Below, piece by piece: positions 29,109 to 43,912 of a stretch of DNA of 64,000 nucleotides. Numbering within the stretch: the first letter of the stretch is position 1; every line of letters begins with the position of its first letter. This stretch comes from Escherichia coli (GTDB lineage: Bacteria; Pseudomonadota; Gammaproteobacteria; Enterobacterales; Enterobacteriaceae): assembly GCF_011045215.1 (NCBI RefSeq), contig NZ_CP049202.1. One strand, given 5' to 3'. The notes below the pieces were generated by a model. That model did not search any database. It was not told where the DNA came from and saw only the letters and a program-made list of their open reading frames with translations. A program made the position numbers and the translations under genes.

Positions 29109-29747
29109 TTAATTAACAGTCCAGGATTGACTGAAATTTTCTTCCTGAAACAGTTCCGTCAGCCCGCTAATCTGTTTCAGTCTCAGCACTTCATCCTGGT
29201 CCATCCCCAGCTCTGTACCAATGCGTTCATCCGTCCAGCCCAGACGTGACAGGTCTCTGACAATATCAGACATTGAGGTTATCTGGTGTTTCCCCCTGGC
29301 CCGGTTATGTCGAATGGTCGCAGCAATACGTGAGGCCTGCCCCCTTCTGTCCGGATTAATACAGGTCACTGGCAACCAGCCCTTCAGACGTTTTCCCGTA
29401 CCTGCTTCCCTGCCCAGTAATTGACGATGAAAACCATCCACGACCAGATAATGCTCCTTCTCTTCCGAGACAACCACAGGCTGCGTGAACCCATCCTGCT
29501 CCAGTGAATGTTTCAGCAGTTTTTTCTCACCCGGTGCCATGACATTGGGGTTATAATCATTGGCCACCACCTCATCCGCTTTCACCCACAGCACACAGTC
29601 CACAGGCTCCTGTGCAAAAGGACTGACCTCATGCAGCACCCTGCGCAGATGATTCAGAGCCTGTATGGTCTCTTCTTCTGCTCGCTCCTGGCTGAAGTAC
29701 TGACGAATCATGTTACCCAGTATCTCCGCTGTCACAGAATCCCCCAT
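29109..29747 (-). CDS. ibrB: ParB-like nuclease-domain protein, IbrB-like
   Basis: 212-aa ORF recognised as ParB/Srx-fold IbrB-like; overlaps upstream partner by 16 nt. Confidence 0.6.
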   Translation of the reverse strand: MGDSVTAEILGNMIRQYFSQERAEEETIQALNHLRRVLHEVSPFAQEPVDCVLWVKADEVVANDYNPNVMAPGEKKLLKHSLEQDGFTQPVVVSEEKEHYLVVDGFHRQLLGREAGTGKRLKGWLPVTCINPDRRGQASRIAATIRHNRARGKHQITSMSDIVRDLSRLGWTDERIGTELGMDQDEVLRLKQISGLTELFQEENFSQSWTVN

Positions 29748-30982
29748 TCCTTCCTCCTTTCTTTCATACGCTGCAGGTAACGTTCATAGTGCCGGGGTTT
29801 GTTCGGGCTGAAGGAGAGGGTCCGGCACCAGAAATCATTCTTTATGAGTGTCTTACAGATACGTCGCCAGGACGGAATATCCCGGCAGCCCAGGTCATTT
29901 TCCTGTTCATCCGGGATATCGTCCGGGAAGCCCCGCGTTTGATACCAGCGCAGGTAGACAGCAATTTTGTTACGGTAATGTTCTGCCGTTCTTTCCGGCA
30001 TCACATCCAGCAGGAACATCGCATAGCTGCGCCAGGTATGATGAGCCGGTTTTGATATACGTTTACGCAGGGCAAAATAGGCACCGCTTTCATTGGCATA
30101 ACGCGCCCCACTGGCAGCCCCTGACACCCGCTCACACATCCTGGCCCAGGTTTCCGGCTCCAGAACATGGTAAAGCCACAGCCCCTTACGTTGTTCCGGG
30201 CCAAAAGGCTCACAGACACGCATGTTACGTAACGGCACACCGGCACGGTACATCAGGTCATACAGGGGATTGTAGATGGCACGGGTTCTGGCGTTATATA
30301 TCCAGATATCACGGGCTTTCCAGTCATACAATGGATACATGGTGTAGTAAAACCCTTGAGGTGATGCCGTGGTCCAGGGTTTATCATCGGCATATCTGAG
30401 CTTACGCTGAGACACCAGTCCCATAAAGCGGTTGAGGGATTCATCCGCACGGACACCAGTCAGTATCGCCACACCGCACCGGTTACCGGCAAACCAGGAA
30501 GAAAATGCCGGAACAAATTCTTCAAAGGTCATGGCATACCGGTAGAAGGGAAAATACGCCATATCCGTAATGGCCTCTTCCGGTGGCTGACGGACCCAGG
30601 TCACACCAGGTTCCCAGCATATCCACTCCGGCTGAAACTGTGAGACACCGTTTACCGTGGTCAGGGGAAGTGCCACCCAGTAAAAGGTCTCCGTCACATC
30701 CCCGTACATATTCCGCATCTTCTGAATATGTTCAACGGTACACTGGTACTGGGCTTCCCAGTCAATGAACAGTACAGAGAATCGACGTTTTTTCCTGCGG
30801 GCCACATTTGCCACAAGATGGAACAGTACGGTGGAATCCTTTCCACCTGAAAAAGACAGACATACCGACGGAAATGTTTCAAAAACCCACTCAATGCGGG
30901 CAATTGCAGCACGCAGAACGTTATTACCTGTCAGGATTTTTGTGATGAAAGAGTCATTCACTTCTGCTTTTCTCATTAACAA
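29732..30982 (-). CDS. ibrA: PAPS-reductase/PP-loop ATP-pyrophosphatase family protein, IbrA-like
   Basis: 416-aa ORF with PP-loop motif SGGKDS near N-terminus; operon partner of ParB-like gene. Confidence 0.6.
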   Translation of the reverse strand: MLMRKAEVNDSFITKILTGNNVLRAAIARIEWVFETFPSVCLSFSGGKDSTVLFHLVANVARRKKRRFSVLFIDWEAQYQCTVEHIQKMRNMYGDVTETFYWVALPLTTVNGVSQFQPEWICWEPGVTWVRQPPEEAITDMAYFPFYRYAMTFEEFVPAFSSWFAGNRCGVAILTGVRADESLNRFMGLVSQRKLRYADDKPWTTASPQGFYYTMYPLYDWKARDIWIYNARTRAIYNPLYDLMYRAGVPLRNMRVCEPFGPEQRKGLWLYHVLEPETWARMCERVSGAASGARYANESGAYFALRKRISKPAHHTWRSYAMFLLDVMPERTAEHYRNKIAVYLRWYQTRGFPDDIPDEQENDLGCRDIPSWRRICKTLIKNDFWCRTLSFSPNKPRHYERYLQRMKERRKEWGIL

Positions 30983-31614: not shown

Positions 31615-32454
31615 TTAACTGACCGGGATGTAAAGCGTACAGAACACCCGCTCCTCATGGTAACGAAAGACGAGTATGTCCACCCCGGGCGTACGGACAA
31701 CTCCATGAGCGGGCAGGATGTTCATATAAATGTAATCTGCACGGGCCGCATGGGTGGTCGTTGTGGTCTCAAACGTGACAGACAGGTAATCCCCCTCGGC
31801 CCATGAGAAGACGTTTCCGCACGGGTTATCCGGTGCGCCCACACCACAACGGACCTCATAATCCCCTTTCCTGCCTCCCACCGGCGTTATTGCCGTCACC
31901 ACCAACCACTGAGCCTCCTGCTGACAGGCAAACACACTTTCGGAAAATGCCGCCGCCCCGTTATCCCGGACCTCATGTATACGGCCGGAAAACGTCAGTG
32001 GTCGTCCCACAATACGGCCTTCCGGAAGATGAACCCTCTCCGGGACCGGAACAGAAAAAGAGATGCCGGCACGACCTGCCAGCGGCAAAAGCCGCCATTC
32101 CGGCTGGCTGCGGTACTGTCCGGGCGTCACGCCGGCTGTTTTCCTGAATTCACGGTTAAATGTCTGCTGGGAATCAAATCCCAGACTACAGGCAATATCC
32201 TGAAACCCACGTAACGACAGGCGACAGAGCAGGGCAGCCCGACTCAGTCGCCTGCGACGAATATATTCGCCCAGCCGCATTCCCGTCTCCAGCAGAAAAA
32301 TACGCTGCAGATGTCTGCGGCAGTAACCGGAATAAGCACTCAGTGAATGAATGCTCATCCGTTTACCACTTTCAAGATGAAGTTCGATATATTCGATAAT
32401 CCTGTCAATGGTCATTTTCCGTATCAGCGCCGTCCCTGTCTTTTTATCATTCAT
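31615..32454 (-). CDS. AraC-family transcriptional regulator with N-terminal HTH and C-terminal GyrI-like effector domain (Rob-type architecture)
   Basis: 279-aa ORF; N-terminal AraC HTH signature (…DSQQTFNREFRK…TPGQYR); paralogue of 39180..40085. Confidence 0.7.
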   Translation of the reverse strand: MNDKKTGTALIRKMTIDRIIEYIELHLESGKRMSIHSLSAYSGYCRRHLQRIFLLETGMRLGEYIRRRRLSRAALLCRLSLRGFQDIACSLGFDSQQTFNREFRKTAGVTPGQYRSQPEWRLLPLAGRAGISFSVPVPERVHLPEGRIVGRPLTFSGRIHEVRDNGAAAFSESVFACQQEAQWLVVTAITPVGGRKGDYEVRCGVGAPDNPCGNVFSWAEGDYLSVTFETTTTTHAARADYIYMNILPAHGVVRTPGVDILVFRYHEERVFCTLYIPVS

Positions 32455-32474
32455 GTTGTTTTTCTGATTTCACA

Positions 32475-33353
32475 TCATGTTTTCAGACCAAAAGAAAATG
32501 ACACCCCTCTGACTCCCCCGTTCCCCTTTATGAAGCCCGGCCCGGCACGCAGAGAGAAAACATGACCACCAACACAGAAGGGAATACTGAACAACAGTTG
32601 CGTCTCATTCACCAGACTGAATCCCAGGTCTTCTTTCCAGCCCGGACCGTAAAAACCTCCGGTATTGTTTTCCACAATGACATCACTTCCGCGCCCCATC
32701 ACACGGAACACATCCCGGAACGTATAAGTCATCCTGACGGAATAACTTCCCGCGTGCGAACCAATATCATGACGGGATGATGAGAATTCACGCAGGGATA
32801 AAAATGAGAGACCCGGACTCAGGGTAAAATTACCGGACGTTATCGTACTGCTGATTTCGGGGGAAACAATCAGGGCATTTTTTCGCTCCCACCCCAGCAC
32901 CTCTTCATAATTTTCATCACCTTCCATCCCGCGACTCATGTTGCGAACCCGGGCATATCCCACGCCCAGACCTCCCCTGACTGAAACATGTTCAGACAAC
33001 CTGACGGTGACATCTGTCCCCACAAGCGTGCCATATGACCGCCAGTGAACCACGGCACCATCATCAACATCCCCTTTCAGGTCAATATAACTTCCCCTGA
33101 GGTACACCCCGGAGCAGACCATCCCCGTGTCATACAGACATTCGCTGTGCCAGGGAACAGTCCAGCGGGAATATTTCCCCCCTCCCTCTGTCCGCAATCC
33201 GGAAGCACTGATGTCATCCGAAAAATGCATACTTAATATTCTGGCATAAGTGCCTGACAGTTCATGACTGTACCCGTAAACCGGTATGACAATACCTGCC
33301 AGAAGTAAAATGAGACGCCATGCTCCCCTGTGATGTTCCACCTGAATGTTCAT
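32475..33353 (-). CDS. Hypothetical exported/outer-membrane protein
   Basis: Track ORF 32475..33452; probable start at internal Met (MNIQ…) followed by a signal-peptide-like segment; GC-rich. Confidence 0.4.
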   Translation of the reverse strand: MNIQVEHHRGAWRLILLLAGIVIPVYGYSHELSGTYARILSMHFSDDISASGLRTEGGGKYSRWTVPWHSECLYDTGMVCSGVYLRGSYIDLKGDVDDGAVVHWRSYGTLVGTDVTVRLSEHVSVRGGLGVGYARVRNMSRGMEGDENYEEVLGWERKNALIVSPEISSTITSGNFTLSPGLSFLSLREFSSSRHDIGSHAGSYSVRMTYTFRDVFRVMGRGSDVIVENNTGGFYGPGWKEDLGFSLVNETQLLFSIPFCVGGHVFSLRAGPGFIKGNGGVRGVSFSFGLKT

Positions 33354-33387
33354 AACATCCACTCCCTGCAACCCAAAACACACCCTC

Positions 33388-34533
33388 TCACGGACAGAAT
33401 CTGTCACGGGAGACACTGTCCCCGGCCCGGGCCCGGGACGCCAGCCCCGCAAAATCCTTCCCGGTGTAATACCCTTCCGGTACCGGAAGACGCTTCATGT
33501 CCTGTCCGGGCCAGAGCTGTAATTCCGCCAGCACCGCGGCTTCCGGTCTGAGAGGGAGCGACAGGCGCAGTGGCTTCATATCGCCCCCCGGAACAGATAC
33601 GGGAAGCCGGTCCGCATCAACATCATAATTGCGCTTTATCACCAGCCACTTGTCCGGCAGAAGACACCGGCTGTTCCACCACACCCTGTCCAGCATACGG
33701 AGCTGAAAACGGGTACGGGACACCGCGCCACCTCCCAGATGAACCAGCACCTGTTTCAGCGCATTCTGCATGGCCGTTTCATACATTCGCCTGTCTGCCG
33801 TCTGTCCGCTGAAGATAAGAGAGAGGGCCACTCTTGCCCCCAGAAGATTGGACCACAGATCCTCCGGTGAAAATGCCGACACAGTTTCAGGATAACCCGG
33901 TACGGATTCGAAGCCGTACCACTGTGCAATTTCATGCCATACCGCCAGCTGGTATGCCAGACGGGCTGATATTTCCGCGGCCAGCACATAACGGTCCCGG
34001 ACGGAAGACGGGGGAGTGAATGCCCGGAAAACCAGCCGCCGTTGTGCCAGTTCATCTCTGCCCGGAGACAACACAAACGCCTGCCCCAGACGTGGCCACA
34101 GACGGGTAAAAATAAACACCGTCATATCCGCCGTATCACGGACATGCGCCGTATCAACAAATCCCCCCTGCGTGGTGAAAATGATACCGTTATGCTCTCT
34201 TCCGCCCCCTGTCAGAGACAACATGCCGGAAACAAAACTGTCGTTGTAATGGTGTCCCCCGGTACTGCCGGCCTCCACCACATTGTCCAGATGAAAGAAT
34301 GGCAATGGTGTACGGAGCCACGGCACCCTCACCCCCAGGTCATACCCAAACGCACAGCAGGCCCGTAACCCCTCCGGGGGGGATAACGGAGGCATAACCG
34401 GCCAGGCACTCGTTGTCATTTCCTTCCCGTCCAGCCATAAAGGAAGCGGAAGTGCGGCCTGCGCCTGACAACACCATAACAACAAAAATAACAACCATTT
34501 TATTTTCTGTTGTCTGTCAGTAATATATCCCAT
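33388..34533 (-). CDS. Hypothetical exported protein
   Basis: 381-aa ORF with N-terminal signal peptide (…LLWCCQAQA); GC-rich. Confidence 0.45.
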   Translation of the reverse strand: MGYITDRQQKIKWLLFLLLWCCQAQAALPLPLWLDGKEMTTSAWPVMPPLSPPEGLRACCAFGYDLGVRVPWLRTPLPFFHLDNVVEAGSTGGHHYNDSFVSGMLSLTGGGREHNGIIFTTQGGFVDTAHVRDTADMTVFIFTRLWPRLGQAFVLSPGRDELAQRRLVFRAFTPPSSVRDRYVLAAEISARLAYQLAVWHEIAQWYGFESVPGYPETVSAFSPEDLWSNLLGARVALSLIFSGQTADRRMYETAMQNALKQVLVHLGGGAVSRTRFQLRMLDRVWWNSRCLLPDKWLVIKRNYDVDADRLPVSVPGGDMKPLRLSLPLRPEAAVLAELQLWPGQDMKRLPVPEGYYTGKDFAGLASRARAGDSVSRDRFCP

Positions 34534-34625
34534 ACTGCATTATTCCGGTTATGAAATTCACTCCGCAGTAATATATGAATGCCGTTTCAGATATTACCGG
34601 ATATCAGATTTCCGTCCTGTCTTTG

Positions 34626-34931
34626 TCAGACAAGAAACCACTGTCTGGACAACCTGTTATTATTTTCGTCGTAATCCACCAGTCCGGCTTCATACAAAAA
34701 ATTCAGACAGATACAACACTGGCGCACAGACATATCCAGTCCGTACGCAATATCAATAACACGAAACAAGACTTCACCATATTTATCCTCCCGGAATTTC
34801 ATCCAGAGGAGCAGTGCTTCACAGTCATCCTGATATAATGCGGTATTGTCCCTGCGTTTCATGGTTTTGTCACACATAGATAATCTCCTGTGCATGCGGG
34901 AATAACATACACATTGCAACAAATATTCCAC
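34626..34931 (-). CDS. Hypothetical small protein
   Basis: 101-aa ORF in operon-like context; no recognisable motif. Confidence 0.25.
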   Translation of the reverse strand: MEYLLQCVCYSRMHRRLSMCDKTMKRRDNTALYQDDCEALLLWMKFREDKYGEVLFRVIDIAYGLDMSVRQCCICLNFLYEAGLVDYDENNNRLSRQWFLV

Positions 34932-35074
34932 AAAGATATTAATATATTAAATTTTATTATCGTCAGCCCGGCATTATTTCTTTTTTGTGCACCCGCTGAA
35001 TCTAATCATGGTATTTATCCTGATACGGCGATAATTATATTATCGCCGTATCCACCGGGCTGTCTTCTCCAGGT

Positions 35075-36028
35075 TCAGAACCGGTATTCACCGGAAACAA
35101 AAAAACTTTTCCGCTTTTCAAACCCCGCTTCGGCGATAAGACTGAAGTGCCGGCTGGGGTCATAGCGTATGCCAGCCAGCATGTTCCACGGTTTTTTCAG
35201 ATGCTGCCTGACATCAAAACGCGCATCCCCCGTTTTATTCAGTTGTGACAACCCCGCCTGCAGTGCAGGTGATGGCATATTCAGGTCATTCAGTTTACCC
35301 CTGAAGCGCTGTTCAACATCCTGGTACATCCCCCCGACCCATACACTCATTCTGCCCGCAGAACTCTGCAGTACCGGTACCGAAGGGACATCAAAGTAAT
35401 ACCCCACCCGGGGTGAGAATGTGACAGTATCAATATGACCATCAAGAATATCAAAGCGTGTCTGCGTATAATTGGCATCCAGCGAGGTGAACCAGTTATT
35501 CATCCCGCCCACCAGGGTGGTGCCGACACCATATGTGGTTCCCTGAAAATCCAGACGGAACTTCAGGTTCTGTGTACCGGCCCCCGGAAACGCCCCGCCG
35601 GTAAACAGAGGTGTTCGGACCCGGATATCTGATACAGACTGTCCGGTTGTTTTTCCCAGAAGCCCATACAGATTCATAAAAGGAAACACCCATGCATCAA
35701 ACCGGAGTGTTCCGGTATGACTTTTCTGTCGGGTCTTTCCGGCATCAATATGTACAATATTATCCAGAGGAAGTCTGCCCAGGTGTAACCCGGAAAACCG
35801 GATACTGTCCACCGATATCCCCTGCCGGATTTGCATATAATTCAGATTAACACCAAATGGTTCCGGCAGTTCATAACCTTCTGCCAGCTCCCGGAAAAAC
35901 GGCAGTACAGACTGTTCACGTCTGACTTCCGGAGCAGCAGACACTTCAGCAGCCCCCGCCTGGTGACTGAATACCCCCGGCAGAACAGCAGCCATCAGGG
36001 CCGCCTGAATACAGCTTTTCATCATCAT
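35075..36028 (-). CDS. Putative outer-membrane beta-barrel protein
   Basis: 317-aa ORF with signal peptide (…SHQAGA), alternating-hydrophobic pattern, C-terminal …GEYRF; immediately downstream of virK-like gene. Confidence 0.45.
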   Translation of the reverse strand: MMMKSCIQAALMAAVLPGVFSHQAGAAEVSAAPEVRREQSVLPFFRELAEGYELPEPFGVNLNYMQIRQGISVDSIRFSGLHLGRLPLDNIVHIDAGKTRQKSHTGTLRFDAWVFPFMNLYGLLGKTTGQSVSDIRVRTPLFTGGAFPGAGTQNLKFRLDFQGTTYGVGTTLVGGMNNWFTSLDANYTQTRFDILDGHIDTVTFSPRVGYYFDVPSVPVLQSSAGRMSVWVGGMYQDVEQRFRGKLNDLNMPSPALQAGLSQLNKTGDARFDVRQHLKKPWNMLAGIRYDPSRHFSLIAEAGFEKRKSFFVSGEYRF

Positions 36029-36033
36029 CCTGG

Positions 36034-36975
36034 TTACATCAGCGTTATTGTGTTTCTGAAATCACAGCCATTCTGCTGTGCAGCCATCAGCCCTCGCCGT
36101 ACCTCATCAAGCAGGGCATTTCGCCTTCTGTACTCAGCCCGTTTTCTTGCAGGGATTTCACCGGCATCTTTACGGGGTAGTTCCGGAGGCAGGTACCAGA
36201 ACCCATCAAAATATTTTCCTCCGGCAGACTTCCAGCACTCACTGTAACGGGCAACAAACCGGCCCTTTTTCTGGTAAAAATAACGCAACTGCCGCATCAC
36301 ATGATTGTCCTCACTGACAGCCACTATCCCCCCGGCTCCGCACATCCCTGCCACCACACTCAGTGCCTCACAGAGCAGACGGCGCGGAAACAGGCCATAA
36401 CAGGCACGGGTGGCCTCCCGGATAATCGCTGTGCCCGTCCCCGCTGCAGGCCCCTGCAATCCCCCGACAAACACCATCCGGTGCCCCTGCCAGTAAAGAA
36501 GTGTGAAGGAAATACGGGTGATAACCTCACCATTAAAACGCAGTATCAGCATCAGCTCCCCCTCGCGGTCAAAGCCACAGGGGGAACAACTGATATCCAG
36601 CCACCTGCCGTCCTTCCCTTCGGTGCGGACAAGCGATGTTTCCCGGCTGACGTTCAGCATTCGCCTGACCTCCTGCGGAAGGCTCCGGATAAGATGATAA
36701 TGGTCAAGAACTGCCTGTACCCGGAATCCGGTGCGACTGTTCCGGAAGAGATAGGGACGGTGAATCTTGGCCGGTAAGGTCGGGTTGACCTCAAGAAGAT
36801 CGTCGATATCGCTCAGTTCACACAGGGCACGAAAATAATGGGTTGTGATCAGAGGATGACAACAACAACGCAGCAGAAATTTATAACGAAACTTTCTGTC
36901 CTCCCACTTCCCTCTGTGGAAAGTACGGCCAGTCATCAGTTTCACAACAAGCGAAATAACAGACAGATTACTCAT
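36034..36975 (-). CDS. virK: VirK-family (DUF535-like) protein
   Basis: 313-aa ORF; size and position after deacetylase and glycosyltransferase match the shf-capU-virK arrangement of Shigella/EAEC plasmids. Confidence 0.5.
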   Translation of the reverse strand: MSNLSVISLVVKLMTGRTFHRGKWEDRKFRYKFLLRCCCHPLITTHYFRALCELSDIDDLLEVNPTLPAKIHRPYLFRNSRTGFRVQAVLDHYHLIRSLPQEVRRMLNVSRETSLVRTEGKDGRWLDISCSPCGFDREGELMLILRFNGEVITRISFTLLYWQGHRMVFVGGLQGPAAGTGTAIIREATRACYGLFPRRLLCEALSVVAGMCGAGGIVAVSEDNHVMRQLRYFYQKKGRFVARYSECWKSAGGKYFDGFWYLPPELPRKDAGEIPARKRAEYRRRNALLDEVRRGLMAAQQNGCDFRNTITLM

Positions 36976-37056
36976 AATATTCAGATGGTATGTCAGATAT
37001 CAGATAACACAGTCCATAACTCAAAAACAAAATACCCGTCTCCTGTACAGGCAACA

Positions 37057-38160
37057 TCAGAAGGGCAGACAGCCCAGCGACAACAGCCTGTCAAGGGTTA
37101 CCTCCATACTGAAACGACTCATCACATCCCTGCGGGCCATGGCCGCCATTTCCGCGAACCCGGCCGGTGCGGACAGGTACGCACGCAGGGCTTCCAGCCA
37201 GGCCTGCCGGTTATCCGGCGGGAGCAGAATACCGGTCCGCTCATGATGAATGACGGAAGATAACCCTCCTGTATTACTGGCCATTACCGGCACACCACAT
37301 GCAGCAGCCTCCACTGCAGCCATACCAAATGATTCACAGGTGGAAGGCATCACCATCAGGGAAGCCACCCTGTAGAGCGGATATACCGGCGTAAGATAAC
37401 CGCATATCAGTACACCCCCTTCCATCCCCAGCGCATGAATTTTACGGCGTAACAGGCGCTCCTCTTCCGGACGCCCGCCACCGACTATCAGCCAGTGAAA
37501 CTGGCCTCCCTCACGTTTCAGATGAAAGAGTGTTTTCAGCATGAAATCCAGGCCTTTCTCCGGACGTAACATTCCGATCTGAACAATGACCGGATGAGGT
37601 GCTCTCGCTTCCAGCCATTCACGAACATGTTCCGGCAGGGGCATGCTCATGGCTTCCCGGATTGCATCAAAATCAAATCCCGGTGAAACCACCCGGATGG
37701 TGTTTGTACATCCCGCAGCCTGCAGCGCCTCCTTCATCGCCTGTCCGGGGACAGCAACGGCATCACAGAAGTGATTCAGCGAAAACACCTCCATCTTTCG
37801 GGTCAGATATGTCTTCTGACGGACAATACTGAACCTGCCCGCCCCTCCGGTAAGCGTGGCCCGGGTCAGAGCCACTGTGTTACTGTCATGTCCGCTGTGA
37901 CACACCACCATATCCGGCCGGAAAGTCAGAACAAGACGACGGAGTCGCCAGACTGATGAAAAATGCAGACTGTTCCTGAAAGGAATATATGTAACCGCAG
38001 TCTGCTGCCTGACCGCTTCCGCGGCTATCCGGCTGTTTTCGCGACATGCCAGCATGACACTGTGCCCGGCACGCTGCATTGCAGCCATCTGAGCCAGCGC
38101 CTGCAACTCCTGACCACCAATATTGGGAGAGGATTCGGTATAAAGAATTTTCATCACCAC
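37057..38160 (-). CDS. capU: Family-1 glycosyltransferase (CapU/RfbU/WabB-like hexosyltransferase)
   Basis: 367-aa ORF with GT-B features (N-terminal …NIGGQE…, C-terminal E-x7-E-like region). Confidence 0.7.
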   Translation of the reverse strand: MVMKILYTESSPNIGGQELQALAQMAAMQRAGHSVMLACRENSRIAAEAVRQQTAVTYIPFRNSLHFSSVWRLRRLVLTFRPDMVVCHSGHDSNTVALTRATLTGGAGRFSIVRQKTYLTRKMEVFSLNHFCDAVAVPGQAMKEALQAAGCTNTIRVVSPGFDFDAIREAMSMPLPEHVREWLEARAPHPVIVQIGMLRPEKGLDFMLKTLFHLKREGGQFHWLIVGGGRPEEERLLRRKIHALGMEGGVLICGYLTPVYPLYRVASLMVMPSTCESFGMAAVEAAACGVPVMASNTGGLSSVIHHERTGILLPPDNRQAWLEALRAYLSAPAGFAEMAAMARRDVMSRFSMEVTLDRLLSLGCLPF

Positions 38161-38163
38161 CTC

Positions 38164-38994
38164 TCAGTCATCATTCAGCCGGGGCCCCTTATGAAGGGCC
38201 AGAAGCGATGAAAAAAACGGAGTGGTGTAATAAAAGAGACGGCGCTTCAGCCAGCCGGAATGTTCACGCTCCTTTGTACTGATACGCCCGATACGCCGGG
38301 GACCCGCCACCGGTGAATTCATCCGCCGCTCAGTGGTGTAGAGGTGGGTGAATCCCAGTTTCTCCGCCACCCTGATATAGTCCGGATTGTAATACCCCTC
38401 CGGCCAGCATAAATGACGACTGCATGAACCGGTCATTTGCCTCATTCGCGCCTGTCCGAGAAGAATATCGGACTCAAGAAAGACGGACGGCTCACGGACG
38501 TTATCCAGCAGATCCCAGCGACGGTGGGTATGTGTGTGCAGATGAAACTCGACCAGCCCGCTCCGGCTCATTTCCCTGACCTCAGACCAGCGCAGCATGA
38601 CATCATCAGCCCGCCCCTGTGCAATCAGGGTCTCGCATTCCCGGTGAGAAAACATATGACGCCCCCCGCTTTCTTCATGTTGCCGGGCGGGACCATCACC
38701 GATAAGCCCCGTGACAAGAAAGATATGAGCCCGGAGACCAAATGCCTGTAACACCGGAAAGGCATAAAACCAGTTATCCAGGTAGCCGTCATCAAAGGTC
38801 AGCATGACGCTTTTGCGTGGCAGTTTCCCGCCACAATAAAAGAATTCCATTTCAGCTGCCGAAACAGTTTTCCAGCCATTTTCAGCCAGCCACTGCATCT
38901 GCTCACGGAAAGTCCGGAGTGAAAGCGTCACCAGCCCTGGATTATTACTGATATGGTGATACATTAATACAGGTAAGTAATGTGCATAAAGCAT
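38164..38994 (-). CDS. shf: Polysaccharide deacetylase-family protein (Shf/IcaB-like)
   Basis: 276-aa ORF with TFDDGY motif characteristic of NodB-type deacetylases; first gene of cluster. Confidence 0.7.
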   Translation of the reverse strand: MLYAHYLPVLMYHHISNNPGLVTLSLRTFREQMQWLAENGWKTVSAAEMEFFYCGGKLPRKSVMLTFDDGYLDNWFYAFPVLQAFGLRAHIFLVTGLIGDGPARQHEESGGRHMFSHRECETLIAQGRADDVMLRWSEVREMSRSGLVEFHLHTHTHRRWDLLDNVREPSVFLESDILLGQARMRQMTGSCSRHLCWPEGYYNPDYIRVAEKLGFTHLYTTERRMNSPVAGPRRIGRISTKEREHSGWLKRRLFYYTTPFFSSLLALHKGPRLNDD

Positions 38995-39179
38995 TTTATG
39001 ATATAACTTAATAAAATAAGTGATTTTTAACCATCTAAAACAAATATTTTATTTATTGAAATGATTTTGCTACACGCTGTCTTGTCTTTTTATGCAAACA
39101 CCCGGCATTAAAAGTTATTTTTTCGGGAATGCTGAATGCACCTCGCATATATAGCCTTCCTAAAATAGGAGTAAAAACT

Positions 39180-40085
39180 TCATTTTAAAAATGAAGAGAT
39201 TTTAACTATGTCTCCAAGAGAAGGTAGTTTATCTCTTGAAACAAGAAAGGAGTCACTCACCACTGGCATGTAATACTCAAAAAAATACTCCCCCTCTTTC
39301 TGATTGTGTTTCTCTATTATTTCAATATCACCCCCATTCAATCTGTTTAATCCATAAAAACCAAGTACATTCATATATATATGGTTTATAAAGTGTATAT
39401 ATTGCTGTTTTGTTCCTGTGAATTTAAAACCAGCATAAAGACCTTTTTTTAAAGTTAAAAATGAATTATTGTCTCGAGTCTTTTCCTTCCAAACCTTACT
39501 CTCTATAATGAAATCCTCACTTCGTTTTTGCCCTTGATAAACCTCATTTGAGATAATCAGAAAGGGGAGGGAATGGGAAAGTAACTTTTCAATTCTATCC
39601 CACCTTTTGGTGGCGCAATTAATAGTATAAGGTATCATTCCTTTATAAACATACAAATCTGCGAAAATCTTTTTCATTTCACAATCGAAGTAATAAAAAT
39701 CAGGACTCTCAAACTCAGGATTAACCGTCAGAGGACCACTGATGTTATGAAACACCCACACTTTATTTTCCCTGTACTGTTTTGGTGTATATCCTGTATG
39801 CTTCTTAAATTCTCTTGTAAAAGTTTGTTGTGAGTCATAACACAATGTTGTAGATATAACTGACAACGGCAGGTTGGTCAATCGTAGAAGAACAGCGCTA
39901 CGGCTAACTCTGCGTAGTCTGATGTATTTACCCACAGGCATACCAACAAATCGTTTAAATAATAATTGTAAATTACGTCTACTATACCCAGAACGGGTAA
40001 CAAGGCTATCTATATCTATATTATAGATATCTAAATTATCTTCAATATATTGAAGAATCTCTTTTATTGTAAGAAGTCTTATCAT
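39180..40085 (-). CDS. AraC-family transcriptional regulator with C-terminal GyrI-like domain (paralogue of 31615..32454)
   Basis: 301-aa ORF; N-terminal AraC HTH (…DSQQTFTREFKK…TPKQYR); AT-rich; between TAA gene and shf. Confidence 0.7.
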   Translation of the reverse strand: MIRLLTIKEILQYIEDNLDIYNIDIDSLVTRSGYSRRNLQLLFKRFVGMPVGKYIRLRRVSRSAVLLRLTNLPLSVISTTLCYDSQQTFTREFKKHTGYTPKQYRENKVWVFHNISGPLTVNPEFESPDFYYFDCEMKKIFADLYVYKGMIPYTINCATKRWDRIEKLLSHSLPFLIISNEVYQGQKRSEDFIIESKVWKEKTRDNNSFLTLKKGLYAGFKFTGTKQQYIHFINHIYMNVLGFYGLNRLNGGDIEIIEKHNQKEGEYFFEYYMPVVSDSFLVSRDKLPSLGDIVKISSFLK

Positions 40086-40384
40086 ATCTTGACCTTATAC
40101 ATCACCGGGAAGCATACGCCAGAAAGCAATTAAGCATGTTTGTGCTTTTTATTTATTGTTTTTTTGTGCACTCAACACTTTATTCTCTATATAAACCCAT
40201 GTTAAAAATGTTAAATTATATTTTGCCATAAACAATGAAGTATTTAACCCCAATAAACAAACCACTATTTACACATGATTAATCATGCAAATGGATACCA
40301 ATTTATTGAGGCTGTTACCGTGGTTAATTAACGTAATATTATTCGGTTAATTATTATTAACAGTAATGTCATATAAATATAAAA

Positions 40385-43300
40385 TTACCATTGATAACCA
40401 ACCCCCACAGAAGCACCAAAGTCATTCTGGGTATTCCCGCCAGCATGTAATTTCGTTATCCAGTGTCCATTTTGTGATATATGAGAAACACCTACAGCAA
40501 TTGCCGATTCGCCACCATAGGTACCTGCAGATACTCCGACCAGACTTGAATCGGGCTGATAGGCCTGTGGAATTCCTGATAAAGCCATCGATGTTGCGAT
40601 ACCTGCAGTCAGTTTTGTTTTCATATCCCCCATCTTTTTATCAAGAGAATCCACCTTTCTGTCGGTATACTGTTTTAAACTGGAGAAACTTTCATTAAGC
40701 TGTCCTACAGTTACAGCATCAGATCGGTTAACTCCCGGAGCAACATTGGTTATTCTTCGCTGATTCAGTGAAGAGCCAACTGACACTGTGTTATCCTCAC
40801 TTGCTACAGAATTACTCCCGAGGGCCACGCTATTTTTTGATGAAACAGTACTTTTGTTCCCAATACCAATGCTGTTTTCTCCGGTTACATTCACATCAGC
40901 ACCAACTGCAATGGCATTATCTTTTTCTGCTCTGGCGTTACCTCCTAAAGCGATTGCATTTTTACCGGTGGCTTTAGGTTTCATTGTTTTTTCTGAGTTT
41001 ACTGCCAACATTGATGCATCTCCTATACTGCCTGAAACCTCTTTTAACTGGCTGACAGTCACTACATCATTATCATTGACCCCTTCTTTCACCCCTGTTA
41101 TTTGTCGATTACCATCAGTACCACTGACGGTTATTTTCTCGCCGCCACTATTTTTTGCTATTGTCACCTCAGAAAGATTTGAGGATTGCTGAACCAGACC
41201 GACTTTTCCGTCTTCAATGTCTTTTATTCCTGAACTTAACTTATTTATTTCAGTTGTATTCTGGGCAACTTTTTGATTCGTTTCATATAACTGTTTACCA
41301 TTTACAGCATCAGTACTGGTTGCACTGACTGCTCCATCGGCAATCCCTGTTAGAACCCTTTCACCATCCGTCCCGCGAAAATCGACCAGTGCTCCTCCAC
41401 TTCCGGAACCAACAGATATTACTTTGTTGTTTGCATTCTGTTGTACCAAACCACTTTGTCCAGCCTGAAGAGAGTTAATCTTTGATATATTTTCAGTTAA
41501 CGTATTGTCAACAGCAATAAACGCATCCCCCACGTTATATTTACTCTGTCCCTGAATGATATAAACAGGATTTCTGAACTGACTAATATTATCGAATGAA
41601 GCCCCACCACCAAGAGCTGTAGCCACTGAACTCAGGACGGTATTTGTCTGATAAAGCTGACTGCCGGTCACGGCTTCGCTGCTGTCCGCTGCTAGAGTAC
41701 CATCCCGAACGCCGGTCAGGGTACGGACACCGTCCGTACCGGTCAGATCCACTGATGTTCCCCCACTGGCTGCTGCAACGCTGACCACCCGGGATGTCGG
41801 ATCCTGACGTACCAGCCCCACGGAGCCACTGCTGATATTATTCACGTCATTCTGCAGTGTGGTTATATTGCCGGTGTTCGCGGTGACCGAGGTATCCAGT
41901 GCCGTCAGGGCATCCCCCACAGTTGAGCGGCCACTGCCCTGAATCTGATAAGTTGGTGCAGTGAAGGAGCCATCCGTTGCGATGGCGGCCCCGCCACCAA
42001 GACTCTGTGTCAGGCCGGACAGCTGTCCCGTATGCTGTGTCAGTGTCTGCCCCTGGGTTGTGAGGGTTCCGGTGTTGGTGGCGATCGCTGCAGTGTTGGT
42101 GGTCACATTCTGGTTGGTGGTAAAAAGCTGACTGCCGGTCACGGCTTCGCTGCTGTCCGCTGCTAGAGTACCATCCCGGACGCCGGTCAGGGTACGGACA
42201 CCGTCCGTACCGGTCAGATCCACTGATGTTCCCCCACTGGCTGCTGCAACGCTGACCACCCGGGATGTCGGATCCTGACGTACCAGCCCCACGGAGCCAC
42301 TGCTGATATTATTCACGTCATTCTGCAGTGTGGTTATATTGCCGGTGTTCGCGGTGACCGAGGTATCCAGTGCCGTCAGGGCATCCCCCACAGTTGAGCG
42401 GCCACTGCCCTGAATCTGATAAGTTGGTGCAGTGAAGGAGCCATCCGTTGCGATGGCGGCCCCGCCACCAAGACTCTGTGTCAGGCCGGACAGCTGTCCC
42501 GTATGCTGTGTCAGTGTCTGCCCCTGGGTTGTGAGGGTTCCGGTGTTGGTGGCGATCGCTGCAGTGTTGGTGGTCACATTCTGGTTGGTGGTAAAAAGCT
42601 GACTGCCGGTCACGGCTTCGCTGCTGTCCGCTGCTAGAGTACCATCCCGGACGCCGGTCAGGGTACGGACACCGTCCGTACCGGTCAGATCCACTGATGT
42701 TCCCCCACTGGCTGCTGCAACGCTGACCACCCGGGATGTCGGATCCTGACGTACCAGCCCCACGGAGCCACTGCTGATATTATTCACGTCATTCTGCAGT
42801 GTGGTTATATTGCCGGTGTTCGCGGTGACCGAGGTATCCAGTGCCGTCAGGGCATCCCCCACAGTTGAGCGGTCACTGCCCTGAATCTGATAAGTTGGTG
42901 CAGTGAAGGAGCCATCCGTTGCGATGGCGGCCCCGCCCCCCAAAGAGTCGGCAATATTATTAATGTTATTACCGGATTGTGTTAGTGCACTGTTCGTTGC
43001 AAAAAGCTGGCTGCCGTTAACAGCGTCAGTACTGATTCCGGATATTCGTCCGGCTGCAACATTTTGCAGCTGACGTTCTTTCCCTGTATCACCAATACTC
43101 AGGGCTGCTACCGGACTGGTACCTGCGTAGGTATATTCCTTATTATTTATGATACCGGATGTTGTTGCAGTCACAGCGGCTGTTTTTGCCTCACTCCCTA
43201 AAGCCACATCGCCATCATTTGATGAAGATGCTCCCATTCCAATGGCCACACTATTATCGCCCCCGGCATTTGAAACAGACCCCAGAGAAATACTGGAATC

Positions 43301-43912
43301 ACCCGCAGCTTCAGCACCGACCCCAATGGCCAGACTGGTCGTCCCGGATGCCAGAGCTGAAACACCAAAAGCCTGAGCTGCAGCACCTGTTGCAGTGGCG
43401 TTACTGCCGAATGCAGTGGAATAGTTTCCTGTGGTATATGCGCCACAACCCGACGCCCATGAATACACACCAAACGCCTCGGGCACAGCATTTGTCACCC
43501 CACCCGTTAACGGCCCTTGATAACCGATGTTATTGGTTGTTGTACCATTACCACTCCAGTTAACTACCGTGGATGAAGTTCCATATGGGTGCATGCCACT
43601 GAATTCAGTATCATTAATAAAACGCTGGTACTGTTCAAATGCCGTTATGGCTCCTGTTGTCACATCAGTTACAGTTCTGCGTCCAATGACATTGTCTGCC
43701 CCACAATAGTCATCATCACCTGCTAAAGTAATCGCCCCATGACTAACATTGGGGTATCCCTGACTGGCAGCAGTAGATGAATAATTTGAAGAACTGAGTA
43801 AGGTTAAGTTAGATGCAGAAACGGAGTATATATATACATATGAAATTAAAAGAACAATAAATTGTACTATAGTTCTACTTTTCATAAGAATTCCTACTAA
43901 AGGTAAAATCAT
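40385..43912 (-). CDS. Trimeric autotransporter adhesin (YadA/Hia-type) with repetitive stalk
   Basis: 1175-aa ORF: signal peptide, head repeats (SVAIG/NSVALG-type), three tandem ~157-aa stalk repeats, C-terminal YadA-like anchor ending …GVGYQW. Confidence 0.9.
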   Translation of the reverse strand: MILPLVGILMKSRTIVQFIVLLISYVYIYSVSASNLTLLSSSNYSSTAASQGYPNVSHGAITLAGDDDYCGADNVIGRRTVTDVTTGAITAFEQYQRFINDTEFSGMHPYGTSSTVVNWSGNGTTTNNIGYQGPLTGGVTNAVPEAFGVYSWASGCGAYTTGNYSTAFGSNATATGAAAQAFGVSALASGTTSLAIGVGAEAAGDSSISLGSVSNAGGDNSVAIGMGASSSNDGDVALGSEAKTAAVTATTSGIINNKEYTYAGTSPVAALSIGDTGKERQLQNVAAGRISGISTDAVNGSQLFATNSALTQSGNNINNIADSLGGGAAIATDGSFTAPTYQIQGSDRSTVGDALTALDTSVTANTGNITTLQNDVNNISSGSVGLVRQDPTSRVVSVAAASGGTSVDLTGTDGVRTLTGVRDGTLAADSSEAVTGSQLFTTNQNVTTNTAAIATNTGTLTTQGQTLTQHTGQLSGLTQSLGGGAAIATDGSFTAPTYQIQGSGRSTVGDALTALDTSVTANTGNITTLQNDVNNISSGSVGLVRQDPTSRVVSVAAASGGTSVDLTGTDGVRTLTGVRDGTLAADSSEAVTGSQLFTTNQNVTTNTAAIATNTGTLTTQGQTLTQHTGQLSGLTQSLGGGAAIATDGSFTAPTYQIQGSGRSTVGDALTALDTSVTANTGNITTLQNDVNNISSGSVGLVRQDPTSRVVSVAAASGGTSVDLTGTDGVRTLTGVRDGTLAADSSEAVTGSQLYQTNTVLSSVATALGGGASFDNISQFRNPVYIIQGQSKYNVGDAFIAVDNTLTENISKINSLQAGQSGLVQQNANNKVISVGSGSGGALVDFRGTDGERVLTGIADGAVSATSTDAVNGKQLYETNQKVAQNTTEINKLSSGIKDIEDGKVGLVQQSSNLSEVTIAKNSGGEKITVSGTDGNRQITGVKEGVNDNDVVTVSQLKEVSGSIGDASMLAVNSEKTMKPKATGKNAIALGGNARAEKDNAIAVGADVNVTGENSIGIGNKSTVSSKNSVALGSNSVASEDNTVSVGSSLNQRRITNVAPGVNRSDAVTVGQLNESFSSLKQYTDRKVDSLDKKMGDMKTKLTAGIATSMALSGIPQAYQPDSSLVGVSAGTYGGESAIAVGVSHISQNGHWITKLHAGGNTQNDFGASVGVGYQW
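41657..43070. repeat. Three near-identical tandem repeats of ~471 bp inside the TAA gene
   Basis: Same sequence (…CTGACTGCCGGTCACGGCTTCGCTGCTGTCCGCTGCTAGAGTACCATCCCG…) restarts at ~41657, ~42128 and ~42600. Confidence 0.85.

Follow-up and report, generated by a model that had tools for sequence, protein, structure and literature searches.

The stretch analysed here (the window, 64,000 nucleotides of Escherichia coli contig NZ_CP049202.1) is a segment of an IncF/RepB-type plasmid with Pef-like fimbriae, YadA-type adhesins and insertion sequence (IS) elements. Between positions 31615 and 40085 it carries a locus in which genes for a polysaccharide deacetylase, a family 4 glycosyltransferase (GT4) and a VirK-like protein are followed by genes for an outer-membrane (OM) beta-barrel (OMP317), a small protein, a DUF4056 protein and a second barrel (P292), with an AraC-family regulator gene at either end (regulators A and B). 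When compared with known systems, the locus is a further variant of the shf-capU-virK/ecf operons, joined to an uncharacterised OM module with a predicted lipid enzyme. Both operon types are long-known plasmid virulence or fitness loci of Shigella, enteroaggregative E. coli (EAEC) and enterohaemorrhagic E. coli (EHEC), and their chemistry is partly understood.

Gene order and distribution of the locus

All nine open reading frames (ORFs) of the locus were found on the minus strand (Table 1), in the order that an earlier reading of the letters alone (the original prediction) had given. The RefSeq labels of near-identical plasmids agree with this order and name two helix-turn-helix (HTH) proteins, a polysaccharide deacetylase, a GT4, a VirK/YbjX protein, three hypothetical proteins and a DUF4056 protein. 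The identities proposed for the deacetylase, the VirK-like protein and the OM barrel were likewise borne out, by the PgaB match, the VirK/DUF535 annotation and the OMP317 model, respectively. The deacetylase and GT4 genes are separated by 3 nt, virK and the OMP317 gene by 5 nt, the DUF4056 and P292 genes by 34 nt, and the P292 and regulator B genes by 20 nt.

Table 1 Features of the locus, in the direction of transcription (AF2, AlphaFold2; pLDDT, its per-residue confidence score; dS, synonymous divergence from the E. fergusonii copy)
Feature	Size	Position	Strand	Remarks
Regulator A, Rob-like AraC-family	301 aa	39180..40085	-	N-terminal double HTH and GyrI-like C-terminal domain; GC 0.33
AT-rich spacer (GC 0.29)		38995..39179	-	Upstream of deacetylase gene
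NodB-type polysaccharide deacetylase	276 aa	38164..38994	-	Shf/SfPgdA/Ecf1 homologue; PgaB N-domain, 3.7e-28
GT4 glycosyltransferase	365-367 aa	37057..38160	-	CapU/RfbU/SfGtr4/Ecf2 homologue
GT4-virK spacer		36974..37053	-	Terminator-like hairpin 37053-37033, then promoter-like site 37003-36974; consensus matches only
VirK/YbjX (DUF535) protein	313 aa	36034..36975	-	RefSeq annotation; orthologue in L007 matches Pfam DUF535
OMP317, OM beta-barrel	317 aa	35075..36028	-	About 10 long strands; AF2 pLDDT 82; ends ...GEYRF
Small ORF	83 aa from ATG; 101 aa from GTG at 34931	34626..34877	-	FaeA/PapI-like
DUF4056 protein	381 aa	33388..34533	-	Pfam PF13265, E 2e-105, model positions 3-266 of 266
P292, OM beta-barrel	292 aa	32475..33353	-	About 12 strands; AF2 pLDDT 61; last structural gene of module
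Regulator B, AraC-family	279 aa	31615..32454	-	Rob-like HTH, divergent C-terminal domain; inside core; dS 0.015

When PLSDB was searched with megablast, the 8.9-kb block proved to be rare. Most of it was present in seven plasmids (97.5-99.4 % identity), all of them IncF plasmids hosted by E. coli and E. fergusonii and originating from cattle and sheep. Two of 5,426 complete E. coli genomes contain the block, and it was plasmid-borne every time. The E. fergusonii copy has all nine ORFs intact, and dS between the two copies ranges from 0.007 to 0.06 across the genes from deacetylase through regulator B and changes abruptly at both ends of this core (regulator A, 0.24; ibrA-like gene, 0.26; ibrB-like gene, 0.12). 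Substitutions inside the core block were too few for dN/dS (the nonsynonymous to synonymous ratio) to be informative. In plasmid C5, FaeA and a fimbrial operon stand in place of regulator A and the match stops at about window position 38976. Because of the dS jump at regulator A and the ibrAB-like genes and of the replacement in plasmid C5, the conserved core is defined as the deacetylase gene to regulator B. Regulator A is a variable, separately evolving flank outside this core, and the bracket of two paralogous regulators is not conserved.

The original prediction had described the downstream half of the cluster as GC-richer and had taken this as a sign of a fused origin. The GC contents of the genes are 0.53 (deacetylase), 0.56 (GT4), 0.53 (virK), 0.51 (OMP317), 0.57 (DUF4056), 0.51 (P292) and 0.54 (regulator B), and low GC is limited to regulator A, the small ORF (0.43) and the intergenic spacers. 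As the structural genes and regulator B all lie within 0.51-0.57, GC and codon composition were rejected as evidence of a fusion. The composite origin of the locus is shown by comparative genomics (the module occurs without shf, capU and virK, and the reverse; see below) and not by its base composition.

The DUF4056 module and its chromosomal counterparts

The DUF4056 protein is likely the enzyme of the downstream half. It starts with a signal peptide in which AQA-A fits a signal peptidase I site. Its family (CapCone-DUF4056) was placed in the Lipocone superfamily by Burroughs, Nicastro and Aravind in 2025 (PMC12419801), and the family signature, in the passages of that paper that describe it, consists of a Gly six residues before the His of H2, a Glu in H3, S/GxxSxx before the Asp of H4 and an Asn at +4. 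In the window protein the corresponding active-site residues are G124...H130, W199-H200-E201, S219xxS222xxD225 and N229, which are invariant in alignment A1. The stretch S219-A-F-S222-P-E-D225 fits the S/GxxSxx pattern before the H4 Asp, and N229 is the Asn at +4. With a strong Pfam match, complete motifs, a soluble protein behind a signal peptide and an OM barrel gene upstream, the 381-aa protein is, judged by its sequence, a CapCone-DUF4056 member of the Lipocone superfamily with an intact catalytic motif.

In the same passages, Lipocone enzymes are predicted to remove or exchange phosphate-linked lipid head groups, and TelC (which cleaves lipid II) and PTDSS1/2 are given as characterised relatives (PMC12419801). 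The context table in the supplement of that paper records an OM protein beta-barrel upstream of DUF4056 in 151 loci. The passages and supplementary entries on DUF4056 hold no discussion of its function, of an Omp85 partner or of a link to a deacetylase, GT4 or VirK. The window protein is predicted to be soluble, to be periplasmic or secreted, and to act as an enzyme on phosphate-linked lipid head groups.

OMP317, the first gene product of the DUF4056 module, was modelled with confidence as a 10-strand OM barrel, and a plausible signal peptide was read from its translation. Nothing significant was found for it in Pfam (best match OMP_b-brl, E 0.18). Two conserved segments were observed in the alignment of its family (A3). 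The first (window residues 42-59) is a near-invariant segment before the barrel, LPF..(G)....GY.LPEPFGV, and the second (window residues 184-197) is an invariant D184-x-N-x-T-x-T...L-D-G pattern that alternates along one strand. Their conservation suggests a functional face or a partner-binding peptide.

P292 also has a plausible signal peptide, as well as its own GGGAG Shine-Dalgarno site, and in two related loci (L003 and L007, see below) there is a 4-nt overlap between the DUF4056 stop and its start. No Pfam match was obtained even at E <= 10. The best Foldseek matches of the P292 model were autotransporter beta-domains, with a TM score of about 0.5, and LpxR ranked ninth (TM 0.42). PagP, PagL and LpxR are OM beta-barrels encoded beside lipopolysaccharide (LPS)-modifying genes, and their folds had been put forward for the barrels of the locus. 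No specific similarity to them was detected in the fold searches, and P292 is best described as a generic 12-strand barrel. The P292 family is tiny, with seven clusters in 5.8 billion proteins and 33 matches among 1.84 billion representatives; its more distant relatives are stand-alone OM protein genes. P292 was considered as a diverged or truncated Omp85 protein and as a duplicate of OMP317, and both possibilities were rejected (BLASTP E 0.17; hhalign probability of 0.5 % against the Omp85 family and of 0.4 % against the OMP317 family). In an E. marmotae contig (L011, 961-2989), a P292 homologue of 246 aa lies directly after a Wza-like polysaccharide export gene, which is the only hint that ties the P292 family to polysaccharide export.

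The small ORF between the OMP317 and DUF4056 genes is collinear with the FaeA/PapI gene of a related locus (L002; 27 % identity, E 3e-4) and has neither a signal peptide nor a Pfam match. Both spacers around it are AT-rich (GC 0.38-0.39), and the whole low-GC insert is absent from L003 and L007. It probably encodes a PapI/FaeA-like winged-helix regulator that is not exported. The original prediction had counted four uncharacterised exported proteins in this part of the cluster. Signal peptides are indeed plausible on the 317-, 381- and 292-aa proteins, but the small ORF is not among the exported ones and the family of the 381-aa protein has already been described.

Counterparts of the module were sought in a census with one genome per species. 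DUF4056 was found in 241 species, and 80 loci were listed and examined, all 80 of them from Enterobacterales. OMP317 homologues are common on Enterobacterales chromosomes, where they are the first of three genes coding for the barrel, an Omp85-family barrel of about 379 aa and DUF4056. This full triad is present in about 65 of the 80 loci, in genera including Edwardsiella, Providencia, Photorhabdus, Xenorhabdus, Citrobacter and Klebsiella, and its genes overlap by 4 nt in two Citrobacter loci (L004 and L005). In a few of the 80 loci the Omp85-like gene comes first (Raoultella, Kluyvera) or there is no Omp85 gene, and in Budvicia and Limnobaculum DUF4056 stands alone and carries a lipobox. Of BamA, the Omp85 partner matches the barrel part alone, and its length leaves no space for POTRA domains. 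No homologue of the deacetylase, GT4 or VirK was found within 7 kb in the 80 listed DUF4056 loci.

When the window module was compared with the chromosomal triad, the barrel and DUF4056 were homologous (45-63 % identity) and in the same relative order. In contrast to the triad, the window module has no Omp85 gene: no 16-strand Omp85 barrel (PF01103) was found in its module, where the unrelated P292, itself without a Pfam match, follows DUF4056. The window module also differs by its PapI-like insert and by being joined to the deacetylase-GT4-VirK genes. No remnant of a chromosomal triad was detected in the 5,426 complete E. coli genomes at blastn-distant sensitivity; in these genomes the triad or module occurs on seven plasmids only, four of which carry the Omp85-type triad. 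The one Omp85-type plasmid that was examined (L096) has IS66 on the flanks of the triad and ibrAB-like and perC-like genes nearby. We found no experimental study of the barrel/Omp85/DUF4056 module in the literature.

The deacetylase-GT4-VirK genes and their linkage to the module

The pINV operon of Shigella has the order shf (SfpgdA)-rfbU/capU (Sfgtr4)-virK-msbB2 (lpxM), and pAA of EAEC carries shf-capU-virK. The first three genes of the window core follow the same order and are likewise plasmid-borne. The deacetylase shares 68 % identity with Shf/SfPgdA of pINV over 277 aa, the GT4 is 53 % identical to Ecf2 of the EHEC plasmid and 52 % identical to CapU of Shigella (99 % coverage), and VirK is 47 % identical to Shigella VirK. 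Unlike in Shigella, msbB2/lpxM2 is missing from the cluster, and virK is followed by the barrel, the PapI-like gene, DUF4056, the second barrel and the AraC-family gene. No LpxM homologue was found in the cluster, so that the barrels and DUF4056 occupy the msbB2/lpxM2 position, as the original prediction had noted.

The ecf operon of EHEC plasmids pO157 and pO145 has the deacetylase-GT4 pair in common with the window and is likewise found on plasmids of bovine-associated E. coli. It differs in its third and fourth genes, a CptA-like phosphoethanolamine (PEtN) transferase and LpxM2, and in lacking VirK, the barrels and the lipocone protein. In pO145_112648_1 (L095, 4847-6391), the third ecf gene is annotated only as "membrane protein" and was identified as the CptA-like PEtN transferase (970 bits). 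Ecf3 was also considered as a VirK homologue, and this was rejected as it is CptA-like. Because lpxM follows the deacetylase-GT4 pair in Shigella and a CptA-like gene and lpxM follow it in EHEC, the pair is a mobile unit that has repeatedly been joined to LPS/lipid A enzymes.

As no signal peptide was read from the translation of the deacetylase, the enzyme should act on the cytoplasmic side. GenBank records annotate Ecf2, the relative of the GT4, as an LPS alpha-1,7-N-acetylglucosamine (GlcNAc) transferase. The best NCBIfam matches of the window GT4 are UDP-GlcNAc-using GT4 enzymes (BshA, MshA and GlcNAc-PG synthase), and homologues were found on 791 plasmids, nearly all of them below 60 % identity. 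In Pseudomonas aeruginosa (GpgS/GpgD, with or without GpgF) and Clostridioides difficile (HexSDF), GlcNAc is attached to a lipid by a cytoplasmic GT4 and converted to glucosamine (GlcN) by a deacetylase that is likewise cytoplasmic (PMC12713373). The window GT4 scored 74 bits (9e-21) against the GlcNAc-PG synthase model, for which the cutoff is 480, and is not an equivalog; GpgD belongs to COG3233 and is not of the NodB type; and the locus has no UPF0104 flippase. VirK was rejected as the counterpart of the flippase GpgF, which is a UPF0104 membrane protein. By sequence comparison, the deacetylase-GT4-VirK genes form a third, diverged lineage within the shf/ecf family.

VirK has been described as cytoplasmic and predicted to adopt a GNAT-like fold, and its loss makes the OM more permeable and the cells more sensitive to cationic antimicrobial peptides (PMC12562796). 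A physical interaction between SfGtr4 and SfPgdA is reported for Shigella, whose resistance to lysozyme and neutrophils is affected when they are lost (PMC7355660). The window VirK matched only a function-less family in PHROGs. No NCBIfam match was found for VirK, OMP317, the small ORF, the DUF4056 protein or P292, and a sequence search of the PDB revealed no relatives of VirK, DUF4056 or the chromosomal Omp85 protein.

The two groups of genes (arm 1, deacetylase-GT4-VirK; arm 2, the DUF4056 module) were found together in at least two further lineages. A Citrobacter freundii contig (L003) carries the deacetylase, GT4, barrel, DUF4056 and a 289-aa barrel and has no VirK, and E. coli K88-type fimbrial plasmids (L007/L103) carry the deacetylase, GT4, VirK, barrel, DUF4056 and a 294-aa barrel. 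In L003 (7551-8511) the deacetylase appears as two ORFs (190 and 131 aa), the probable cause being a frameshift, and the cluster is preceded by a larger block of sugar genes (UDP-GlcNAc 2-epimerase, acyltransferase and GT2). The L007-type locus has two divergent Rob-like genes upstream, and one such plasmid came from a human stool isolate from Kenya. A decayed form in three E. coli contigs (L012-L014) has kept the deacetylase, GT4 and VirK, and the barrel and DUF4056 genes have been deleted. In L012 (10001-11224), an ORF of 407 aa fuses the remnant of the barrel N-terminus to the P292 homologue, with FaeA upstream and ibrAB downstream.

Protein identity between the linked lineages (window, L003, L007/L103) is 49-71 %. 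When neighbour-joining trees were drawn, the plasmid-type DUF4056 proteins and the plasmid-type barrels each formed one clade (100/100 bootstrap) apart from the chromosomal triads, and the linked GT4s were separate from CapU and Ecf2. As the order has been kept at 49-71 % identity and the module proteins form one clade, the linkage of the two arms is old and maintained. So the module was captured once, lost its Omp85 gene, gained P292 and then co-diversified with the deacetylase-GT4 pair. The shf-capU-virK and ecf operons also occur without the triad. That the two arms work together is inferred chiefly from their co-diversified linkage.

Regulation and possible roles of the locus

Both regulators are Rob-like and have a double HTH of the MarA/SoxS/Rob type. 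Regulator A matches the RobA model of NCBIfam from end to end (138 bits; residues 7-275 on model positions 5-285 of 286) and regulator B matches it with its HTH half (112 bits; residues 16-161), both far below the cutoff of 380. The two also match the SoxS, RamA and MarA models, again well below cutoff. Regulator B has an HTH_18 match (1.7e-18), and for its C-terminal domain only a non-significant Cass2 match was obtained (E 0.33); the C-terminal half aligns with that of regulator A. The regulators had been called clear paralogues. They can indeed be aligned from end to end (30 % identity, E 3e-29) and share the motifs quoted for them, but at this identity they are, by sequence, distant members of one Rob/MarA/SoxS-like family and not recent paralogues. 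Two further Rob-like genes lie in L007, one being 43 % identical to A and 29 % to B, and the other 31 % to both.

The AT-rich spacer upstream of the deacetylase gene probably serves the deacetylase-GT4 unit as promoter and regulatory region. For the Shigella operon, regulation by PhoP is on record (PMC7355660). In the window, by contrast with the Shigella and EAEC operons, which are reportedly PhoPQ-controlled, Rob-like regulators lie alongside the genes and no PhoP box was found in the spacer upstream of the deacetylase. The scan for PhoP boxes gave 22 matches in the window where 22.8 were expected. One of these chance-level matches is a PhoP-box-like direct repeat, TTTTTAACATGGGTTTA (one mismatch; 40192-40208, minus strand), about 110-120 nt upstream of regulator A. 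Scanning for the marbox (the Rob/MarA/SoxS site) revealed none inside the cluster, and the total in the window was below chance. For Shigella virK, a mapped promoter region of its own has been reported (PMC12562796).

On balance, and with somewhat better than even confidence, we read the locus as a composite, plasmid-borne locus for the remodelling of LPS and the outer membrane, with two arms. In arm 1, which would be cytoplasmic, the GT4 would add GlcNAc to a lipid-linked acceptor (by homology most likely the inner-core heptose of LPS), the signal-peptide-less NodB deacetylase would convert the added GlcNAc to GlcN, and VirK would act on the same pathway. In arm 2, at the outer membrane, the secreted DUF4056 protein (His130, Glu201 and Asp225) would work with two dedicated barrels and is predicted to cleave or exchange phosphate-linked head groups of LPS or OM lipids. 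Control would be local, through regulator B in the core, the PapI/FaeA-like small protein and the exchangeable upstream regulator A. Because the genes of the sister operons other than VirK and the deacetylase are annotated for LPS, the terminal slot is taken as one for phospho- or acyl-modifying enzymes of LPS/lipid A, and the predicted head-group chemistry would let the DUF4056 arm fill the slot of MsbB2/LpxM2 or of the CptA-like PEtN transferase. The analysis shows which genes are present and what they resemble, the folds, the intact state of the catalytic motif, the age and maintenance of the linkage and the modular descent; we infer the substrates, the site of action of DUF4056, the coupling of the arms and the regulation of the locus. 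The observation behind the original prediction is thus partly confirmed and its interpretation partly supported: the core idea of a composite of a surface operon and an OM module holds, on evidence that differs from that offered for it.

Several points weigh against this reading. Arm 2 does not need arm 1, since the chromosomal triads have no shf, capU or virK neighbour. The plasmid is an IS66-rich mosaic, and the promoter- and terminator-like sites inside the cluster, together with the AT-rich spacers around the small ORF, suggest several transcription units. The model of P292 is of moderate quality only. The role of Ecf2/WabB as an inner-core GlcNAc transferase comes from GenBank annotation and, reportedly, from Kaniuk et al. 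2004. In Klebsiella pneumoniae, lipid A was not altered by VirK (PMC13109725).

A more specific proposal, which we hold only tentatively and consider doubtful, is that the barrel, the second barrel and DUF4056 form an unrecognised OM machine that edits lipid head groups, with the barrels holding or passing the lipocone protein, and that on plasmids it performs the last step of LPS tailoring. The second barrel would be a POTRA-less Omp85 protein on chromosomes and a 12-strand translocator-like barrel on plasmids, and Shf, CapU and VirK would produce GlcN- or acyl-modified LPS in the cytoplasm, whose phosphate-linked groups would be trimmed or swapped at the outer membrane. If this were true, it would be the first physiological role for a Lipocone family in LPS biology and would give VirK a pathway context.

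The cluster could also be a chance mosaic on an IS-rich plasmid, in which an LPS-core unit, a derivative of the OM triad and regulators of adhesin or fimbrial genes share neither a pathway nor regulation. The IS66 copies, the variable flanks, the abrupt dS change at the core ends and the internal promoter- and terminator-like sites agree with this, as do the low-GC insert, whose PapI/FaeA-like gene is of a type that fimbrial operons employ, and the decayed contigs that kept the deacetylase, GT4 and VirK after losing the barrel and DUF4056. We regard it as unlikely, given that the two-arm order has been kept in three lineages at 49-71 % identity, in two genera and on different plasmid backgrounds, that the module proteins are monophyletic, and that the spacing is tight (5, 34 and 20 nt). 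Quite unlikely, in our view, is an adjacency to shf-capU-virK without functional meaning, with the downstream module exporting DUF4056 as a lipocone toxin against competitors or the host, in the manner of two-partner or split type V secretion; the enzyme would then target lipid II or the membrane lipids of competitors or host cells. CapCone-1, CapCone-2 and TelC are polymorphic-toxin domains, and the supplement files CapCone-DUF4056 itself under "biological conflict" in the entries that concern it (PMC12419801), which also counts against the remodelling reading. An effector role has been suggested for a DUF4056 ORF in a Salmonella type VI secretion system island (PMC11669294), export would agree with an Omp85-family partner and with a 12-strand barrel nearest to autotransporter translocators, and adhesin and fimbria genes are neighbours on this virulence-type plasmid. 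Yet there is no candidate immunity gene, the gene after the triad varies (an FAD enzyme in Citrobacter, EamA in Edwardsiella), and no PAAR, Rhs, two-partner secretion or other delivery domains were found in the triad, whose 379-aa Omp85 partner has no room for POTRA domains. The triad is chromosomal across Photorhabdus, Xenorhabdus, Edwardsiella and Providencia at 45-57 % identity, with no sign of the hypervariability of toxin cassettes; CapCone-DUF4056 is not among the families that the relevant passages list as recruited toxin tips (PMC12419801); and the linkage to the deacetylase and GT4 has been kept down to about 60 % identity.

Synthesis of an exopolysaccharide of the poly-N-acetylglucosamine (PNAG) type was also considered, with the GT4 building the polymer, the Shf-type deacetylase de-N-acetylating it like PgaB or IcaB, and the barrels serving as a PgaA- or Wza-like pore. 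This is likewise quite unlikely, although the deacetylase matches both PgaB (3.7e-28) and the IcaB deacetylase domain (1.2e-14), shf of EAEC has been tied to biofilm formation (according to the introduction of PMC7355660), and the sugar-gene block of L003 (epimerase, acyltransferase, GT2) and the Wza-like neighbour of the P292 homologue in L011 point the same way. PgaB and IcaB act outside the cytoplasm, whereas the window deacetylase has no signal peptide, and the locus lacks a processive GT2 synthase as well as any Wzx/Wzy, ABC or PgaD-type component for export across the inner membrane. The closest named relative of the GT4 is annotated as an LPS core transferase, and none of the known PNAG systems involves a lipocone enzyme. 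The barrels do not specifically resemble PgaA, Wza or AlgE, and matches to PelBC and "polysaccharide secretin" reached TM scores of 0.30-0.35 only.

Through the old linkage, the locus connects the VirK-type operons with the DUF4056 triad, which narrows the hypotheses for both to the remodelling of LPS or OM lipid head groups. As none of the 5,426 complete E. coli genomes was found to carry the module on its chromosome, either arm can be introduced into strain K-12.

Two neighbouring features were also observed. Directly downstream of the cluster lies an ibrA/ibrB-like pair (PAPS-reductase-like and ParB-like; 29109-30982, minus strand), which is also found beside related clusters on other plasmids (L010, L012 and L096), often near YadA-type adhesin or fimbrial genes. 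On the other side, a YadA-family trimeric autotransporter gene (1175 aa; 40385-43912, minus strand) contains a 471-bp unit repeated 2.7 times with 99 % identity (41653-42937), and its counterparts on related plasmids are either truncated or disrupted by IS66.

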